The translations under genes were made by a program, and so were the position numbers. DNA of 64,000 nt from IMG/VR virus record IMGVR_UViG_3300037067_002413, positions 64,001 to 128,000 of that record; one strand, given 5' to 3'. Shown here piece after piece: positions 3,498-59,218 of the stretch. The first letter of the stretch is position 1. Every line of letters starts with the position of its first letter. The stretch comes from a virus (Duplodnaviria > Caudoviricetes). Below the pieces are notes generated by a model. It worked only from the letters and a program-made list of their open reading frames with translations, was not told the DNA's origin and made no database searches.

Positions 3498-3688
3498 AAG
3501 TTCGGATTGAGAAGGACATTGTTATACCGGCGGGCATGATCTTGAATGATGCTCCCCGGCGAAGTGTGAGGTATGAACCCTTTGGCGAAGCCTTGATTGG
3601 TTTTGGCAAAGATCATACCGCGAGATTCACCATTGACCTTGACGCCATCAAAGCCCACCCCAGGCAGTTCAAGGTTATTGAAGAGTGA
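3494..3688 (+). CDS. hypothetical protein
   Basis: ATGA/GTGA coupling with both neighbours; start taken at MKVRIEK. Confidence 0.55.
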   Translation: MKVRIEKDIVIPAGMILNDAPRRSVRYEPFGEALIGFGKDHTARFTIDLDAIKAHPRQFKVIEE

Positions 3689-4104
3689 AACGAATCCGGC
3701 GACCTAAGCACGGGCCGGAATGGTATATCCAGCGCGATCTCATTTCCTATCTTAAAACAAGGAAATGGCTCGTTGAAAGAATGGTAGGAAATGCCTTTCA
3801 ATTCGGCATACCTGACCTCTATTGCCACCATCCAAAATGGGGCGGTCGCTGGATCGACGTGAAGAATCCTGGAAAGTATAGCTTCACGCGAGAACAAAAG
3901 ATTAAGTGGCCCGTGTGGGAACAGTTTGGTTGTGGCATTTGGATTCTTACCGCTGCAACGCAAGAAGAATACGACAAGTTGTTTGCGCCGCCTAACTGGC
4001 GCGAGTTCTGGAAAGAGTCTTGGGGTGACGTTCCAGATATTGATGAACTACTTGATGAAATCAACCGTTTGGAGAATGAGCGTGAAACTGCAAACTCAGA
4101 ATGA
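3685..4104 (+). CDS. VRR-NUC / PD-(D/E)XK endonuclease (resolvase-like)
   Basis: E..IQ..L...GIPDL...WIDVK..G....EQ pattern. Confidence 0.75.
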   Translation: MKRIRRPKHGPEWYIQRDLISYLKTRKWLVERMVGNAFQFGIPDLYCHHPKWGGRWIDVKNPGKYSFTREQKIKWPVWEQFGCGIWILTAATQEEYDKLFAPPNWREFWKESWGDVPDIDELLDEINRLENERETANSE

Positions 4105-44644: not shown

Positions 44645-45388
44645 TCATCCGGCGTTGTGAAACAACTTCATGTGCTTGGCGTCGAGTTTCTTGCCTAACT
44701 CGGCGTGTTCAGCCTGCTTCAATTCAAGGGCAGCGCGACGAACAGCCAGATTGTTAGTCTGAGCCGAATACGCGCGTTGCTCTTTTGCTAAAACCAACTT
44801 GGCATGAAGATCATTCTGGTCAGTTGCCTTGATCTTCTCGGCCAACTTCTCCGATTTGGTCATCAGTTCGTTGGCCTCTTTGTCCAGACGGGAGTTCTCC
44901 TTGTTCAGCCGGCAATCCTCGGCTTCCCAAAGAACCTTCTCCACGTCGTAGACCGGCTTGCGAACCAACGTGTTGGTGACGAACAGCGCGGACTTTTCCA
45001 GAACTTTCTTGCACTCGTGCTTTGCAACCTTATCGCAAACCGGCAACTGAGTAGCCGGGCCGCAGGCCGGTGGCAACTTGGCAACAGGGCCGCAGGCTTT
45101 CGGCAAGTGTTTAGCCGGGCCGCAGGCTGGCGGCAGCGAAGAAGCCGGAGCAGTGACGGGCGGCAAATGAGCAGCCGGACCACAGACGGACGGAGCAACT
45201 TCGTGCAAACGGAATGATGTGATCGTCTTCGCTTCGGTTTTCGCTTCGGTCTTTTCAACCTTTGGTTCCGCGACAGTCGCGGTGACCGTCGCAGTGACGG
45301 TTCCCGGAACTGGCGGCAGATTGTCGGCCGAAGCAGCCGACGCATACGCCAAGACCGACAACGCGGTCAACAAATAGAAACTTCTCAT
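44645..45388 (-). CDS. secreted protein with LPPACGPA Cys repeats and a coiled coil
   Basis: AGGAG RBS, signal peptide, about six CGP/CDK units. Confidence 0.75.
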   Translation of the reverse strand: MRSFYLLTALSVLAYASAASADNLPPVPGTVTATVTATVAEPKVEKTEAKTEAKTITSFRLHEVAPSVCGPAAHLPPVTAPASSLPPACGPAKHLPKACGPVAKLPPACGPATQLPVCDKVAKHECKKVLEKSALFVTNTLVRKPVYDVEKVLWEAEDCRLNKENSRLDKEANELMTKSEKLAEKIKATDQNDLHAKLVLAKEQRAYSAQTNNLAVRRAALELKQAEHAELGKKLDAKHMKLFHNAG

Positions 45389-45780: not shown

Positions 45781-45975
45781 GCTTATTAGATCGAATTGCT
45801 TTATGCCAGACTGAAATAGTTGATGGAAGACTAGAAAAATCGGAAAAACAAATACAATCCTACCTTTTTGTATTTTATCCCGGAAAAGTTTTCCTAATCG
45901 TATTTGCTTCCCGAAAAAGGCAACCTACCTTTCCATATCGAAATAAACGTCACGCCTTACCCCTTGAGGAAATGT

Positions 45976-46761
45976 ATGAACAACATGACTGATGAAGAAT
46001 TGCTGACCAAGTACCTGGAGACCAAGAACAATGAAGTCTATGCGGTTCTCGACGAAAAGATGCGACCTCGACTTCATTCCTTTGGAGTGCGCCTGACTCG
46101 ATCCCGCGACGATGCCGACGACATCGTGCAAGAAGCGATGTTAAAACTACTCGAACTTGATCTGCCCAACGAACCTATCAGATCGGCCGAAAGTTTCCTG
46201 TTCCGAATGATGCAAAACATCTACGTTGACCAGAAACGATCAGAAAAGCAAAGCATAAGAGACGGAATGGTTTCTCTTGATGCCATCTTGGACTCGGAAG
46301 AGGACAATAGTTTTGCCGCTCGGAGGACTGATGCCGCTAATTTTCCAGATAAGGATACCGTATTAACGCAATCTCAAGTTCGTGCCAAAGAACTACAAAA
46401 AGAAACACGAATAGCACTTGACGTATTGCCCACTAAACAGAAAGAGGCAATTGAACTTTGCCATTGTCGTAGTATGACGGCAGGAGAAACAGCAACAATA
46501 CTAGGAACATTGGAAACCACGATCGAAATGCGAGTAAAACGTGGAATCAAAACACTACGAAAAACTCTAGGTGCAAAACCCAAGAGTCGCCCGGCAAAGA
46601 GGCCGGTCAACGCCACCAACTGTTCTGGCGAAGTAGTTCACAGTTTTCCCACTGTCCAAGATGCGGTGAGAGCGGGGTTCAGTTCTAGCCGGCTGTACTG
46701 TTCCCTAAATCACGGGAAAACCTACCGTGACCTGAATTGGAGTTACGCCAATGCGACGTAA
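45976..46761 (+). CDS. ECF-type sigma factor with extra C-terminal (NUMOD1-like) domain
   Basis: TDEELL, DADDIVQEAMLK, FLFRMMQN.YVD..R, LP.KQKEAI.L, ETATILG....TI..R..RG. Confidence 0.82.
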   Translation: MNNMTDEELLTKYLETKNNEVYAVLDEKMRPRLHSFGVRLTRSRDDADDIVQEAMLKLLELDLPNEPIRSAESFLFRMMQNIYVDQKRSEKQSIRDGMVSLDAILDSEEDNSFAARRTDAANFPDKDTVLTQSQVRAKELQKETRIALDVLPTKQKEAIELCHCRSMTAGETATILGTLETTIEMRVKRGIKTLRKTLGAKPKSRPAKRPVNATNCSGEVVHSFPTVQDAVRAGFSSSRLYCSLNHGKTYRDLNWSYANAT

Positions 46762-47010: not shown

Positions 47011-48060
47011 ATGAGTATTGAATCAAGAATTGCAGAAATTGAATGTATCCGTGGTGCCAACGACCAGCAGGTTGCCGAACATGGCCGTCTATTGATGATG
47101 CGTGACGAGCGGAACGCCGGCCGGGCGGTCGAAGTCCTTGACGACGGTTTTGTCCACCTAGTCGATCACATGGGAGGCGACCATGCGATCGTCCAGTCTG
47201 CCCGCGTGAGTTACGGGGACGGGACGAAAAGTGTCAGCGACGATCGTTCGCTGATCCGTTACCTGGTTCAACATAAACATACGACGCCGCTGGAAATGTG
47301 TGAGATGAAATTCCATGTTCGCGTCCCGATGGACACCTGGCGGCAATGGATCAGGCACCGAACGGCCAGTGTCAACGAATACTCGACCCGTTACAGCGTG
47401 GCGATCGACTCGATGCAAAACACCGAGCAGGATTGGCGATTGCAAGCCGACACCAACAAGCAGGGATCAATGCCCGGTGAATTGATGTGGCCCGAAGGCT
47501 ACAAGGTCGAACCTCCGAACGATGGATCGTCCGGTGCCGTGGTGTTGGACAATGGGCGTCCCCGAATGCTCACGAGCGGCGACACGATGACGCCGAACGA
47601 ATATCTTTCTGCAAGGGAAGTCATCTTCCAGAAGGAAGCACGGCACGTCTACGAGGAACGATTGAAGTTCGGCGTTGCCCGCGAGCAGGCCCGCAAGGAT
47701 TTGCCACTAAGCACGTACACCGAGGCGTATTGGAAGATCGACCTTCACAATCTTCTACACTTCCTAGAACTGCGAATGGAGAAACACGCGCAGTTCGAGA
47801 TTAGACTGTACGCCAATGCGATTGCCCAACTCATCAAACCCATCGTGCCCGTGACGTGGGAGGCGTTTGAGGATTACTGCCTCAATGCCATGACATTGAG
47901 CATCGCCGAGCAGAACGAGATCAGGCAAGCCCTGCATCCCACCTGGACTGTTTGCAAGAAGGCCATGAGTAGCCGGGAGCGGACGGAGTTGGAAACCAAG
48001 ATGGAATGCCTTGGCATAGAACCATTGCTGTATCCGTCAGATGAGGGATTGTCGTCGTGA
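47011..48060 (+). CDS. thyX: FAD-dependent thymidylate synthase
   Basis: RHRTASVNEYSTRY signature, H.TPLE, REQAR..LP, HAQFEIR. Confidence 0.95.
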   Translation: MSIESRIAEIECIRGANDQQVAEHGRLLMMRDERNAGRAVEVLDDGFVHLVDHMGGDHAIVQSARVSYGDGTKSVSDDRSLIRYLVQHKHTTPLEMCEMKFHVRVPMDTWRQWIRHRTASVNEYSTRYSVAIDSMQNTEQDWRLQADTNKQGSMPGELMWPEGYKVEPPNDGSSGAVVLDNGRPRMLTSGDTMTPNEYLSAREVIFQKEARHVYEERLKFGVAREQARKDLPLSTYTEAYWKIDLHNLLHFLELRMEKHAQFEIRLYANAIAQLIKPIVPVTWEAFEDYCLNAMTLSIAEQNEIRQALHPTWTVCKKAMSSRERTELETKMECLGIEPLLYPSDEGLSS

Positions 48061-48198: not shown

Positions 48199-48774
48199 AT
48201 GTACAAGCAGATGACGTTCCGTGTCCGTGGTGTCTCGCCGCTGATTATGCACAATCCTCAGTTGGCAGACCCGCTCAATTCCTTTTCCAAGGACTTGAAG
48301 AAAATCACCAGCAAGAGGAAGAAGACCGACGAAGATTACGCCGAGATGGCGCGTATTGAGTTCCTCGGCGGTCTTTATCTCGATGAGGACAACAAACCGT
48401 GCATCCCTGGTGAGACGATCGAAGCGGCTATTGTAGCCGGTGCCAAGAAGAACAAGATGGGGCCGGCGGCAAAGTCCGGTATCATCGTGGACGGCAACTT
48501 CCGCCTTGAGTACAAGGGACCGAAGACGCCGGAGAGCTTGTTCGCCGACGACAACTTCCGCAACACGTCTCGATGCCGTGTCGGCAATAGTGCCGTCATG
48601 CGAACTCGCCCGATCTTCAAGGAATGGGAATGTGAGTTCGTGGTCAATTATCTACCGGATGTGGTCAGCGAAGAAGATGTGATCTCATTCGTTGAAAACG
48701 CAGGGCGGCTTTGTGGCTGGGGCGATTGGCGTCCCCGGCATGGCCGCTTTGAGGTTCTCCAACAGGCTGCATAG
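48199..48774 (+). CDS. stand-alone RAMP / Cas7-like RNA-binding protein (putative guide-RNA effector)
   Basis: beta1 FRVRGVSPLIMH, PCIPGETIEAAI (cf. RAMP P.IPGSSLKG), RTRP.F.EW, C-terminal glycine loop AGRLCGWGDWRPRHGRFEV; TAAGGA RBS. Confidence 0.75.
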   Translation: MYKQMTFRVRGVSPLIMHNPQLADPLNSFSKDLKKITSKRKKTDEDYAEMARIEFLGGLYLDEDNKPCIPGETIEAAIVAGAKKNKMGPAAKSGIIVDGNFRLEYKGPKTPESLFADDNFRNTSRCRVGNSAVMRTRPIFKEWECEFVVNYLPDVVSEEDVISFVENAGRLCGWGDWRPRHGRFEVLQQAA

Positions 48775-48782
48775 GAGGTATT

Positions 48783-49256
48783 ATGCCAGTTGTAACCTCT
48801 ACCCATCCGTCGCTTATCGACGTATGGCAGTTGGCGAAAGGTGATTATATTTCGCCAGAGTTCCTGGAAGGTTTGACCGGGTTTCTGCGGTACACGCAAG
48901 ACTATAGCTTCGCTATGCTTTCGTTACGCGATGACCTTGAGCGCAGGCTAGGGGCCATTGGAAACCCAGTCACAATCAAACAGGAAGACCAAGGTCTGCG
49001 TCTTCTGACGGACAGCGAGGCAGCGGAATACAATGCCCACCGAGGAAACAAACTCCTTGGGCAAATGGGTCGCGCTCACAAGCGCAACCAAGCCGTTGAC
49101 TCGAACAACCTGTCTCAGGAAGAAGACCACCAGCACCTACGGAACTTGCAAGTCCAAGGAACCATCCTGTCTTCCGCGAAACAAATCAAGCGGCAATACC
49201 GCATGAAATCGTTTCAGCGAAGGACGCCTGGTCTCCCGGTTGCAGTTCAAGCGTGA
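48783..49256 (+). CDS. hypothetical accessory protein of the RAMP-array locus
   Basis: AGGAGG RBS overlapping the RAMP stop; lies between the RAMP gene and the array. Confidence 0.7.
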   Translation: MPVVTSTHPSLIDVWQLAKGDYISPEFLEGLTGFLRYTQDYSFAMLSLRDDLERRLGAIGNPVTIKQEDQGLRLLTDSEAAEYNAHRGNKLLGQMGRAHKRNQAVDSNNLSQEEDHQHLRNLQVQGTILSSAKQIKRQYRMKSFQRRTPGLPVAVQA

Positions 49257-49263
49257 AAACGCA

Positions 49264-49299
49264 GGGCGGTCGTCGGGAGACCGGCGACCGCCCATTTTT
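49264..49299 (+). terminator. GC hairpin + T-tract between the genes and the array
   Basis: gggcggtcgtcgg-gaga-ccggcgaccgccc-attttt. Confidence 0.7.
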
Positions 49300-49300
49300 A

Positions 49301-50582
49301 AGAAACCGCTTTACAACAAAAGGCGGTTTTCTAAACGAATAAGTTGGGGTTAGGTGATGTCTGATCCCGTCCAGTGGGGCGATGTGAAGTTTGGTTCTTT
49401 TAACGAAGCCGTCTTGCAAGAGACGGTTTCCTTTAGCGAACCTGTGGTTCGATGCGGTCTGGTACGGTATGGTCGGCAAGGTTGTGTGATGTAAGGTTCT
49501 CTGAACGAAGCCGCTTCGTAAGAGGCGGTTTCCTTGAGTGAATCTAACCTGGGGTTGGCTTGGGTGAAGTCTGGTCGGTCAAGATGATGTATGGTTCTCT
49601 GAACGAAACCGCTTCGCAAGAGGCGGTTTCCTTGAGCGAACCTGCGGTATTTTGTGGTATGGTGACGTGAAGTACGGTCGGGCTATTTGATTTCTTTGAC
49701 GAAGCCGCTTCGCAAGAAGCGTCTTCCTCAAACGAATCTGCGGTTCGGTCAGTCATGGTCAGTTAATGTGTGGTGGAGTCATGTAAGTTGCGATAAATTA
49801 GGGTTCCTTTAACGAAGCCATTTCGCAAGAGATGGTTTCCTCAAACGAATCTTTGATATGGTCGGTTCCTGTGCAATATGTTGCGGTTCACCAAGGTAGT
49901 GTGGGGTATCCTAATGAACGGTTTGGTTCCTTTAACGAAACTGCTTCGCAAGAGGCGGTTTCCTTGAGCGAATCAACTTTGGTCGAGTCGTGGAAGGTAG
50001 GTTGTGGTGAGGTGATGTAATGAACGGTGAGGTTCTCTGAACGAAACCGCTTCGGAAGAGGCGGTTTCCTTTAGCGAATCTAAATCAAGGTTCGGTGCGT
50101 TGAGTGGCGGTTATGTTAGGTCTGATACGGTAAGTAAGGGCGAGGTTTTCTGAACGAAGCCGTTTCGCAAGAAACGGTTTCCTTGAGCGAATCAGGTCTG
50201 TCGAGGTTGTTTTGCGGTGGGGTGGGGCAACGCATGGCTGTGCATGATTGGGTTCTCTGAACGAAGCCGTTTCGCAAGAAACGACTTCCTTGAGCGAATC
50301 AACTATGGTACGGTCAGTCAATGTGTAGTATGGTGATGTATGCTGCGATGAGTTAAGGTTCGTTTAACGAAACCATTTCGCAAGAGATGGTTTCCTCAAA
50401 CGAATCTGTGGTAGAGTAGAGTCAGTTCTGGTATGGCAGATTTTGGAAGGGTGGAATTTGGTTCTCTGAACGAAACCGCTTTGCAAGAAGCGGTTTCCTT
50501 TAGCAAACCTAAGTTAAGACTAGGTTGAGTGAAGTGATGTGTGTTGCGATCCGGTCTGGTATGGTCATGTAATTTTAGGTTC
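49301..50582 (+). ncRNA. repeat-spacer RNA array: eleven 50-nt hairpin repeats (+1 degenerate leading copy) and 12 spacers made of (GGT-like)NN pentamers
   Basis: Repeats start at 49393, 49495, 49593, 49689, 49802, 49925, 50031, 50144, 50251, 50357, 50460; consensus GGTTCTCTGAACGAAGCCGCTTCGCAAGAGGCGGTTTCCTTGAGCGAATC; spacers 46-73 nt. Confidence 0.9.
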
Positions 50583-50585
50583 TAT

Positions 50586-50620
50586 GCCGCCTGACGGAAT
50601 AATCCGTGCAGGCGGCTTTT
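50586..50620 (+). terminator. intrinsic terminator closing the array
   Basis: gccgcctg-acgga-ataa-tccgt-gcaggcggc-tttt. Confidence 0.75.
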
Positions 50621-50824
50621 CGTTTCTTGCTGGCACTCTAGGAAACTTCGTGCCAACCGGAAACTTTCTGTAGATTCCTCAGTTTTCTCAATTGATAGTC
50701 GATACCCTTTGTACGCAGATTGGGCAACCGAAAGAGACGACCAACACTCGTCCCGGAACATCCCGTGCAATTAGTATAGGCGACCATTTCAAGGATCAAA
50801 AGAGTTTGTAAGAAGGAGAAGGAC

Positions 50825-58081: not shown

Positions 58082-58264
58082 GGAGATTGAGTTATATGCT
58101 TGCGGGACACAATAAGAAGTGGACGGAACGAATCAAGAAACCAACTCCACCACGGGTTTGCAACTCATGCGGACGGAAACGTAAAGGCAATGAGCCGTGG
58201 TATTTCTTCTCGGATGGAACGCAATCGTGCGAGTCATGCGAGGAGAAGAACTATCCGATGCCAA

Positions 58265-59218
58265 ATGCAAATAATACCTGAACTACAGTGGCGTGGACTC
58301 ATCCATCAGACGACCGATGGCCTGATTGAGCATCTGCAAACTAAGCGGACGGTCTACCTGGGCATCGACGCCACGGCTGACAGTCTGCACGTCGGCCATC
58401 TGGTTATGCTTCTGACGCTGAGGCGATTTCAGCAAGCCGGTCATCGGACCATTGTTCTAATTGGTGACGCTACTGGGATGATAGGTGACCCAAGCGGCAA
58501 GAATGAGGAACGGAAACTGCTGAACCAGGTAGACGTTGGAATGAATGCGTTTAGCATCACGGAACAGATCACACGACTTGTAAGTGTAATTGTGGTGAAC
58601 AACCTCGATTGGATGCGCGACTACCGTTATCTTGACTTTCTACGCTACGTGGGCAAGCATTTCCCGGTCAACGTGATGCTAACAAAAGACTCTGTGAAGA
58701 GCAGGATGGAATCGGGGCTGAGTTACACCGAGTTTAGTTACATGCTTTTACAGGCTTACGACTTCGTGAAGCTGTGGGGCAATTACGGCTGCACCTTGCA
58801 GATCGGCGGGTCTGACCAATGGGGCAATATCACTGCCGGCATCGACCTGGCACGACGGATGGACGGCGAACAATTGTACGGCTTGACCTGCCCGCTGCTA
58901 ACGAAGAGCGACGGCACGAAAATGGGCAAGACTGAAAACGGCGCATTGTGGCTTGACGCCAACAAAACATCGCCCTATGACTTCTTTCAATACTGGGTAA
59001 ATATCGACGATGCCGATGTTCGGCAGTGCTTATGTTTCTTTACGGACTTGGACATGAACGAGATCAACGCCCTTATGGCTCGGCATGAATCTGATCCTTG
59101 CAAACGCATCGCCCAACGGCGTCTTGCAATGGAGTTGACCAATCGAGTGCATCATGGCACACCGCGCTTTGGCACTATCCATCGTTCGCGCTTAGACCTA
59201 TCCACCGTTCGCGCTTAG
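58265..59218 (+). CDS. tyrS: tyrosyl-tRNA synthetase lacking the C-terminal S4 domain
   Basis: YLGIDATADSLHVGH, GDPSGK, EFSYMLLQAYDF, QIGGSDQWGNI, KMGKT; homology ends at ELTNRVH. Confidence 0.92.
   Translation: MQIIPELQWRGLIHQTTDGLIEHLQTKRTVYLGIDATADSLHVGHLVMLLTLRRFQQAGHRTIVLIGDATGMIGDPSGKNEERKLLNQVDVGMNAFSITEQITRLVSVIVVNNLDWMRDYRYLDFLRYVGKHFPVNVMLTKDSVKSRMESGLSYTEFSYMLLQAYDFVKLWGNYGCTLQIGGSDQWGNITAGIDLARRMDGEQLYGLTCPLLTKSDGTKMGKTENGALWLDANKTSPYDFFQYWVNIDDADVRQCLCFFTDLDMNEINALMARHESDPCKRIAQRRLAMELTNRVHHGTPRFGTIHRSRLDLSTVRA

Follow-up and report, generated by a model that had tools for sequence, protein, structure and literature searches.

Does a two-gene locus followed by a repeat array in an uncultured phage encode a non-CRISPR, programmable RNA-guided system, and is such a system new? 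A sequence-only reading of a 64,000-nt stretch of phage DNA (the window; positions 64,001 to 128,000 of IMG/VR record IMGVR_UViG_3300037067_002413) had proposed such a candidate and likened it to VIPR. Viral Interference Programmable Repeat (VIPR) is a phage system first described in 2026 (bioRxiv 10.64898/2026.04.26.720920, 10.64898/2026.04.26.720927). In the published family, Vipr is a minimal RAMP with a single RRM, a G-loop, and a thumb, and the loci are mostly viral and consist of vipr and vap with neither cas genes nor a CRISPR array. We are highly confident that this uncultured phage of 146 kb carries a complete VIPR locus in the window, in all likelihood one of type II, and the locus agreed with the published family on every sequence-level point that we compared. 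The non-CRISPR part of the proposal stood, while its novelty was overstated: the locus is a further member of a published family, and the class had already been described.

The phage came from landfill and groundwater, and its IMG/VR record (145,969 bp) was 100% complete by CheckV. Genes in the window included DNA polymerase, ligase, topoisomerase, RNR, and ThyX. Pfam models for terminase (PF03237) and capsid (PF05065) had no match in the phage genome, so the evidence for a virus is the IMG/VR record with its CheckV result, together with the replication genes. The identical locus was present in sequencing runs of three landfill and groundwater studies, of which two may themselves have supplied the window, and no variants were found among the contigs carrying the locus that we compared. 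Shine-Dalgarno sites were found for 38% of phage ORFs vs 8% of random positions; Bacteroidota phages rarely use such sites. The nearest VIPR relative of this phage was in Pirellulales.

The whole layout was found as the earlier reading had described it, with two genes, a terminator-like hairpin, 11 repeats, 12 variable tracts, and a final terminator (Table 1), and the tract lengths agreed with those it had listed. Both ORFs, vipr and vap, were intact. The flanks of the leader hairpin resembled the 3' half of the repeat, and the leader was without the GGTTC 5' part. Two observations on transcription were counted against the VIPR reading: a strong terminator-like hairpin separates vap from the array, and we looked for a sigma-70-like promoter upstream of the first guide and found none. 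No Rfam family, hammerhead included, matched across the region.

Table 1 Features of the locus in window coordinates. Tract lengths are approximate; each repeat (tail) is 50 nt.
Feature	Position	Strand	Tract length (nt)	Repeat start	Evidence or remark
vipr: 191-aa Vipr, stand-alone Cas7-like RAMP	48199..48774	+			PDB 36pp_D, phrog_4652, AF2, Foldseek, contact residues
vap: 157-aa Vipr-accessory protein, probably Vap1-like	48783..49256	+			synteny by tblastn, weak profile match
Terminator-like hairpin and T-run 3' of vap	49264..49300	+			13 bp, 11 G-C
Leader: degenerate tail-like hairpin 5' of first guide	49297..49341	+			11-bp hairpin
vrRNA 1: 10 pentamer units and tail	49342..49442	+	51	49393	tail 49393-49442
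vrRNA 2: 11 units and tail	49443..49544	+	52	49495	one 4-nt slip
vrRNA 3: 10 units and tail	49545..49642	+	48	49593	
vrRNA 4: ~8-10 units and tail	49643..49738	+	46	49689	most divergent tail, with compensatory changes
vrRNA 5: 13 units and tail	49739..49851	+	63	49802	3' half a paralogue of vrRNA 10 (repeat family D3, 85%)
vrRNA 6: 15 units and tail	49852..49974	+	73	49925	
vrRNA 7: 11 units and tail	49975..50080	+	56	50031	
vrRNA 8: 13 units and tail	50081..50193	+	63	50144	
vrRNA 9: 11 units and tail	50194..50300	+	57	50251	one 6-nt slip
vrRNA 10: 11 units and tail	50301..50406	+	56	50357	perfect 1-nt-skip match to L180, seen for no other guide
vrRNA 11: 11 units and tail	50407..50509	+	53	50460	
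vrRNA 12: 14 units	50510..50626	+	68		GGTTC and intrinsic terminator replace the normal tail
Final terminator	50586..50626	+			hairpin 50586-50616, then U-run to 50626

By homology, the product of the 191-aa gene is the Vipr protein. It matched PDB 36pp_D, 'SUSP1 Vipr protein', at E 5.6e-40 with 40% identity over 186 residues, and phrog_4652 at E 4e-63. The AF2 model had a pLDDT of 92, and its best Foldseek matches were Csm3, Cmr4, and type VII Cas7 (E 2e-6, prob 1.0, 10–16% identity). This is the structural check that the earlier reading had suggested, and both the SUSP1 match and the Cas7-family fold bear out the RAMP identity it had given the protein. The SUSP1 cryo-EM paper names ten residues that contact RNA and DNA; in SUSP1 Vipr they grip the pyrimidine and the two G's of every GGY and touch the target backbone (10.64898/2026.04.26.720927). 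Of these ten, eight were identical (here/SUSP1: H18/H17, K34/K33, E72/E71, R137/R138, C172/C173, D176/D177, W177/W178, and R178/R179), and two were altered (SUSP1 M72 to T and SUSP1 V175 to W). H18 and R137 were invariant, D176 and R178 were kept in 20/21 relatives, and the G-loop C-G-W-G-D-W-R-P was preserved. The locus probably belongs to type II, the clade of SUSP1 and P. fulva, an assignment based on the 40% identity to SUSP1 Vipr.

The variable tracts consisted of tandem pentamers, with about 8–15 units in each of the 12. Across 135 pentamers the composition by position was T 84%, N, N, G 69%, and G 72%. Autocorrelation of G and T had maxima at lags 5, 10, and 15, and the observed value was reached in 0/2000 shuffles, confirming that the spacers are patterned with a 5-nt period. 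A pentamer detector run over the whole 145,969-bp phage genome picked out these 12 tracts and nothing else, all of them on the + strand. The published vrRNA code is YNNGG, or GGY-NN, in 9–16 units (10.64898/2026.04.26.720920), a range that covers the 10–15 units per guide of this array. In about a third of the pentamers at least one of the two G's was missing, and three guides contained a slip of 4 or 6 nt, so some guides may be impaired.

These tracts bear directly on whether the locus is an atypical CRISPR array beside a lone Cas7, with spacers captured from invaders. The layout resembles repeats and spacers, the repeats form hairpins, and the fold of the protein is Cas7-like. As in the class 1 CRISPR Cas7 backbone (Csm3/Cmr4) with its crRNA, subunits with an RRM-thumb-G-loop fold would bind the RNA at a fixed period, one to each, and a structured, repeat-derived handle adjoins a variable guide. 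The 'spacers', however, are patterned pentamers and not captured DNA, and the repeats are 50 nt long and differ between copies. The protein matched Vipr at E ~6e-40 and CRISPR Cas7 at fold level only. Pfam or PHROG scans of 20 of the larger ORFs of the window named no cas gene, and the locus had no acquisition machinery there. Unlike class 1 CRISPR, VIPR has a period of 5 nt with three bases sequestered, gapped targets, and guides that are encoded in the genome. We give a captured-spacer CRISPR array almost no credence.

The 50-nt repeat is the 3' tail of the vrRNA. The 11 copies varied, as had been noted, with a mean column identity of 88%. RNAalifold and a hand-drawn structure concurred on a hairpin of 21 bp capped by a GNRA loop, and 95% of cells in the tail alignment paired. 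When five tails from a related IMG/VR contig (L005) were added, double changes occurred in seven pairs and the covariation score was reached in 0/500 shuffles. Pairing maintained through compensatory changes implies selection on the RNA. Each tail directly adjoined the next guide.

The array could also act at the DNA level, for example as iterons, an origin of replication, or a site for packaging, or it could be an unrelated structured RNA that happens to lie beside a RAMP gene. Tandem ~100-bp units with inverted repeats can mark origins, and the public runs listed with the locus included no RNA run. The strict 5-nt T-N-N-G-G period, however, is strand-specific, G-U pairing together with the compensatory changes is what an RNA read from the + strand would show, and the tail covariance model (CM) scored ~75 bits on the + strand vs ~33 bits on the − strand. 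Among 80 IMG/VR vipr loci, 72 had same-strand pentamer tracts (241 same strand vs 44 opposite), so that homologues are linked to like arrays, a check that the earlier reading had called for. The homologous SUSP1 vrRNAs, of ~100 nt, were sequenced and co-purified with Vipr (10.64898/2026.04.26.720920). A DNA element or unrelated RNA is very improbable.

Somewhat less improbable, but still quite unlikely, is a VIPR relic, in decay or already inactive, in which the genes are intact and the array has drifted so far that its guides neither load Vipr any longer nor have anything to match. The G's at pentamer positions 4 and 5 are kept at only ~70%, three tracts contain slips, 11 of the 12 guides had no target found, and the array of a related locus in a Pirellulales MAG (L087) had much cleaner units than this phage's. 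Against this, the VIPR paper itself reports that internal degeneracy of vrRNAs is frequent (10.64898/2026.04.26.720920), and sparse databases suffice to explain the absent targets. The compensatory changes in the tails, the intact ORFs and preserved contact residues, and the recurrence of the identical locus in the three studies also argue against a relic.

The second gene, vap, is probably Vap1-like on sequence comparison and weakly related to SUSP1 Vap1. Its product had no Pfam, PHROG, or PDB match, and an Atlas search returned viral clusters only, none of them named. Alignment with hhalign to a SUSP1 Vap1 profile (with three phage neighbours) gave Prob 76% and E 2e-5, vs 1% for shallow profiles. 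The AF2 model was poor (pLDDT 55), with a helix-helix-helix-hairpin followed by long helices; Vap1 of type II VIPR is predicted to be DNA-binding and winged-helix-like. By tblastn, vap relatives adjoined vipr in 19/80 IMG/VR loci. The closest Viprs in the collections searched (59–60% identity) were those of L005, a 56-kb contig, and L087, a 699-kb contig of the Pirellulales MAG. In both, the same 50-nt hairpin tail class adjoins vipr (CM 50–72 bits) and the same vap family is present, 48% identical in L005 and 43% in L087. They differ from this phage in guide number (5 in L005 and 3 in L087 vs 12 here) and in gene order. In L005 vap lies 3' of the array, and in L087, an element within a bacterial chromosome, it lies 3 kb downstream of vipr with ~3 kb between it and the truncated array.

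The type II VIPR of the Escherichia phage SUSP1 (Vipr, Vap1, and vrRNAs) shares with this locus a homologous Vipr that retains the GGY- and target-contact residues, and the order of vipr, a ~150-aa gene, a hairpin with T-run, and a downstream vrRNA array. In both, YNNGG guides of 10–15 units each end in a structured 3' tail, and the locus sits amid nucleotide-metabolism genes of a large lytic-type phage. They differ in the number of guides downstream (12 here vs three in SUSP1), with none upstream of vipr here, and in the tail (a 50-nt hairpin here vs a ~40-nt pseudoknot). Units are contiguous here, whereas those of SUSP1 end in a T-run and are preceded by a conserved ~35-nt segment. The pentamers are also more degenerate here.

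No convincing natural target was found in our searches. All guides scored no better than shuffled guides against their own phage genome and against 167 loci that included the relatives' vipr genes; self-targets were also absent from the VIPR authors' own systems (10.64898/2026.04.26.720920). Exact 1-nt-skip patterns of vrRNAs 7, 1, and 3 and the nine-unit cores of vrRNAs 6 and 8 had no match in IMG/VR, nor did the vrRNA 7 pattern in JGI metagenomes or vrRNA 5, at ≤3 mismatches, in 401 Pirellulales genomes. The vrRNA 5 core had a single match, which extended to only 20/26. The vrRNA 12 core matched the tape-measure gene of three related IMG/VR phages at 20/20 over ten units. We rejected this as probable chance: such a pattern should match about twice by chance, the units on either side mismatched, the skipped base coincided with the first codon position, and none of the other guides converged on those phages. 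Guide vrRNA 10 matched contig L180 (38% G+C, Petrimonas-like; L180:421-452) at 22/22 near the start of a Petrimonas prophage-like gene, under skip 1 only. The chance expectation was ~0.03–0.1, a rough figure on an assumed database size. This match is a lead only and may be due to chance.

By analogy with the SUSP1 experiments, one Vipr protomer would bind each pentamer to form a helical filament that hides GGY and exposes the NN dinucleotides. These would pair with double-stranded DNA reading NN-x-NN-x (the 1-nt skip rule), and binding would silence transcription of competing mobile elements. The proposal of one subunit per 5-nt unit agrees with the cryo-EM of SUSP1 (10.64898/2026.04.26.720927) and would apply here by homology. 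Because the tails abut the next guide without the spacer or T-run, unlike SUSP1, the anatomy points to a single long transcript. This RNA would begin upstream of 49342, end at the terminator near 50620, and be cleaved at the tail hairpins, or next to them, to give units of ~100–120 nt. The sequence-only reading is supported overall, with expression and the cutting into separate guides being predictions from sequence, as is its proposed targeting of rival phages, other mobile elements, or host genes.

Given the abutting GNRA hairpins, the leader hairpin, and the single terminator, one precursor RNA would need cutting, with a host RNase, Vipr, or Vap as the candidate cutter. In the first VIPR preprint (10.64898/2026.04.26.720920), the main text makes no mention of RNase, biogenesis, or precursor and leaves type II processing unaddressed. 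We suggest tentatively, as a doubtful but not negligible proposal, that the clade of this phage, L005, and the Pirellulales prophage uses a repeat-spacer-like array whose precursor is cut at the hairpins, and, separately, that vrRNA 10 silences the start of the Petrimonas prophage gene. If true, vrRNA biogenesis in this clade would include a CRISPR-like step, cutting at the hairpins.

The locus leaves the existing account of VIPR unchanged. It confirms that VIPR systems can be recognised from sequence reading alone, and through it the family now includes a large environmental phage whose array of twelve guides is among the longer tidy ones. With its simple covarying hairpin tail and contiguous units, it is a clean natural case, convenient for studying the transcription and cutting of vrRNA arrays.

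The locus is a genuine VIPR system, probably of type II, and its list of parts and their conservation are established. This is the family that a sequence-only reading had named, and we located it in the literature. VIPR systems combine a minimal RAMP protein (Vipr) with vrRNAs and, as a rule, a single accessory gene (vap). Each vrRNA has 9-16 YNNGG repeats and then a structured 3' tail that is invariant. Double-stranded DNA targets are paired by the NN dinucleotides according to a 1-nt skip rule, transcription is repressed, and seven types have been defined (bioRxiv 10.64898/2026.04.26.720920). Vipr structures have one protomer per repeat, and the residues holding G1, G2, and Y3 and contacting the target backbone have been identified (10.64898/2026.04.26.720927). 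A satellite is also silenced by a phage VIPR (10.64898/2026.10.15.759431).

The 191-aa vipr product matched PDB entry 36pp, 'SUSP1 Vipr protein', by sequence (E 5.6e-40) and was 40% identical over 186 residues to the vipr product of Escherichia phage SUSP1, which has a type II VIPR. In the alignment, H18, K34, E72, R137, C172, D176, W177, and R178 were identical to SUSP1 H17, K33, E71, R138, C173, D177, W178, and R179, respectively. H18 and R137 were invariant across 21 relatives, while D176 and R178 were found in 20/21. An AlphaFold model built on an alignment of relatives (pLDDT 92) had Csm3, Cmr4, and type VII Cas7 subunits as its closest PDB structures (E 2e-6 to 5e-4), at TM ~0.5 and 10-16% identity. 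The SUSP1 match, the retained contact residues, and the Cas7-type neighbors of the model together bear out the earlier RAMP call and place the protein in the Vipr branch rather than in a CRISPR Cas7 family. The nearest cellular relatives of this Vipr included Pirellulales and other Planctomycetota as well as many Alphaproteobacteria, a weak hint as to the host.

The array was non-coding, with eleven 50-nt repeats (mean column identity 88%) setting apart 12 variable tracts of 46-73 nt. All earlier numbers for the ORFs, repeats, tracts, hairpin, and terminator were reproduced on re-measurement, and the degenerate hairpin copy is an addition to that description.

Features of the VIPR locus and guide matches (G402-G404 are three related IMG/VR phages)
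Feature	Position	Strand	Remark
vipr ORF, 191 aa	48199-48774	+	ORF call
vap ORF, 157 aa	48783-49256	+	ORF call
Hairpin, 13 bp, G+C-rich, with T-run	49264-49300	+	After both ORFs
Degenerate copy of repeat hairpin and 3' flank	~49297-49341	+	Precedes tract 1
vrRNA 5	49739-49851		Paralogue of vrRNA 10
vrRNA 10	50301-50406		Paralogue of vrRNA 5
Terminator hairpin and U-run	50586-50626	+	Array end
vrRNA 12 match	G402:46040-46068		Tape-measure gene
vrRNA 12 match	G403:7225-7253		Tape-measure gene
vrRNA 12 match	G404:23333-23361		Tape-measure gene

Counting units backward from the GG at the start of each repeat gave 135 five-base units across the 12 tracts, with T at the first position (84%), mixed bases at the second and third, and G at the fourth (69%) and fifth (72%). 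Three tracts each contained one 4- or 6-nt slip, and tract 12 under the correct anchor consisted of 14 clean units. Autocorrelation of G and T had maxima at lags 5, 10, and 15, and 0/2000 shuffles matched the observed value. A tract detector (9 units, score >=20 of 27) run on the full 145,969-bp genome returned precisely the twelve array tracts, on the + strand, and no further pentamer tracts on either strand. The final seven units and tail of vrRNAs 5 and 10 were 85% identical, with differences distributed across NN as well as G positions, and these two guides may be aimed at variant copies of one site.

The 50-nt repeat is the vrRNA tail. Its RNAalifold fold agreed with an independently hand-drawn structure, comprising a 5-bp outer helix that joins GGTTC to GAAYC, a mismatch-containing middle helix, and an 11-bp inner helix capped by a GNRA tetraloop. 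Among the eleven array tails, 95.7% of cells paired and double changes occurred at six pairs; the covariation score was equaled in 0/500 shuffles, and sliding the partners as a control lowered pairing to 35-60%. A covariance model made from the eleven copies and searched against 160 related loci found this tail class elsewhere only in L005, a 56-kb IMG/VR contig (five copies; Vipr identity 59%), and L087, a Pirellulales MAG contig (three copies; 60%). With the L005 copies included, double changes were present in 37 cells at seven pairs and 95% pairing was kept. The SUSP1 tail is a pseudoknot followed by a T-run, whereas the tail here is a hairpin, and SUSP1 units each have a conserved ~35-nt 5' segment while here the tail abuts the next guide directly. 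A 151-nt groundwater contig (run X2), aligned to window 49589-49648, carried a tail copy with 4 differences beside a different pentamer tract, which indicates that a related array with other guides is present in the same sample.

The vap gene had zero matches in Pfam, PHROG, and PDB, and only five close relatives in a large protein set. By tblastn, vap relatives adjoined vipr in 19/80 IMG/VR loci. The L005 copy (48% identical) was located 3' of the array rather than 5', and the L087 copy (43% identical) was 3 kb downstream of vipr; linkage to vipr that persists through such rearrangement marks vap as a true accessory gene. A profile of 18 vap-family members matched a Vap1 profile, consisting of SUSP1 Vap1 and the genes 3' of vipr in phages Medea1, LittleE, and MakoManhole, over 103 columns (Prob 76%, E 2e-5), and a shallow two-sequence vap profile gave no match to Vap1. 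The poor structure model (pLDDT 55) had three helices and a hairpin, then long helices, a predicted fold consistent with winged-helix-like Vap1 but short of proof. We consider vap to be Vap1-like with moderate confidence. In the cultured Pseudomonas, Gordonia, and Mycobacterium phages Medea1, MakoManhole, and LittleE, the same two-gene operon of vipr and a vap-like gene is annotated as hypothetical proteins, and the 200-360-nt gap after each operon probably contains vrRNAs.

Pentamer tracts occurred on the vipr strand in 72/80 IMG/VR loci encoding relatives (241 tracts on the same strand vs 44 on the opposite), mostly a few hundred bases from vipr and with a spacing of 100-145 nt. L087 (CAWJKP010000005.1), the nearest cellular VIPR relative, contained at 3570-3900 three guides whose GGY-NN units are very clean and which end in this tail class, and then a fourth guide cut short. 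Between the shortened guide and the vap homologue were ~3 kb of other DNA that look like an insertion within the array.

The phage genome, an IMG/VR virus record, is complete per CheckV. Genes in the window included DNA polymerase, ligase, topoisomerase, RNA ligase, ribonucleotide reductase, and methyltransferase, along with a phage sigma-70-family factor and ThyX thymidylate synthase directly upstream of the locus (45904-46761, 47011-48060) and a class I Trp/Tyr-type aminoacyl-tRNA synthetase farther downstream (58100-59218). A 247-aa protein on the minus strand (44645-45388) had a signal peptide, several copies of one short Pro/Cys-rich repeat (L-P-P-A-C-G-P-A-like), and no Pfam family. Three metagenome studies of landfill and groundwater contained the identical locus, and two of these may be the source of the window itself; no RNA run was among the public runs listed for it.

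For target searches, guides were recast as NN-x-NN patterns per the published rule. No self-targets were found above shuffled-guide controls, in agreement with the VIPR paper's own control, and no guide matched the VIPR loci of relatives above chance. Exact full-length and nine-unit searches of IMG/VR and JGI metagenomes were blank for most guides, as was a <=3-mismatch search of 401 Pirellulales genomes with vrRNA 5. Ten consecutive units of vrRNA 12 matched a tape-measure gene at 20/20 positions in three phages. We judged this match to be chance because ~two chance hits were expected for the pattern, the adjoining units failed, the skipped base fell on codon position 1, and these phages drew no match from any other guide. 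vrRNA 10 matched 22/22 positions of a JGI metagenome contig (L180:421-452; Ga0172378_10239138) under the 1-nt skip; with skips of 0, 2, and 3, just 13-14 of the 22 matched. This site straddles the start of a gene, taking in its first 11 nt and the 21 nt before them. The 111-aa product shared 98% identity with a hypothetical protein of Petrimonas mucosa and was similar to viral proteins. The chance expectation was roughly 0.03-0.1 for an assumed database size, and the low G+C of the contig and the clear Shine-Dalgarno usage of the phage counted against a shared Bacteroidota host. We regard the site as a lead, whether real or chance.

By analogy with SUSP1, Vipr protomers would coat each guide, one per pentamer, with G1 read by H18 and D176, G2 held by R137 and W177, and the pyrimidine pocketed by R178 and E72 of the next protomer. 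The exposed NN pairs would recognize gapped targets in DNA, transcription would be blocked, and Vap would strengthen the silencing. The anatomy of the array suggests a single precursor across all twelve units, with cleavage at the tail hairpins or next to them, the degenerate leader hairpin giving guide 1 an equivalent context and the terminator hairpin replacing the tail for guide 12.

The locus adds a further member to the known VIPR family and is not a new kind of system. Its distinctive features are twelve contiguous guides and a hairpin tail class common to the phage and a Pirellulales prophage.
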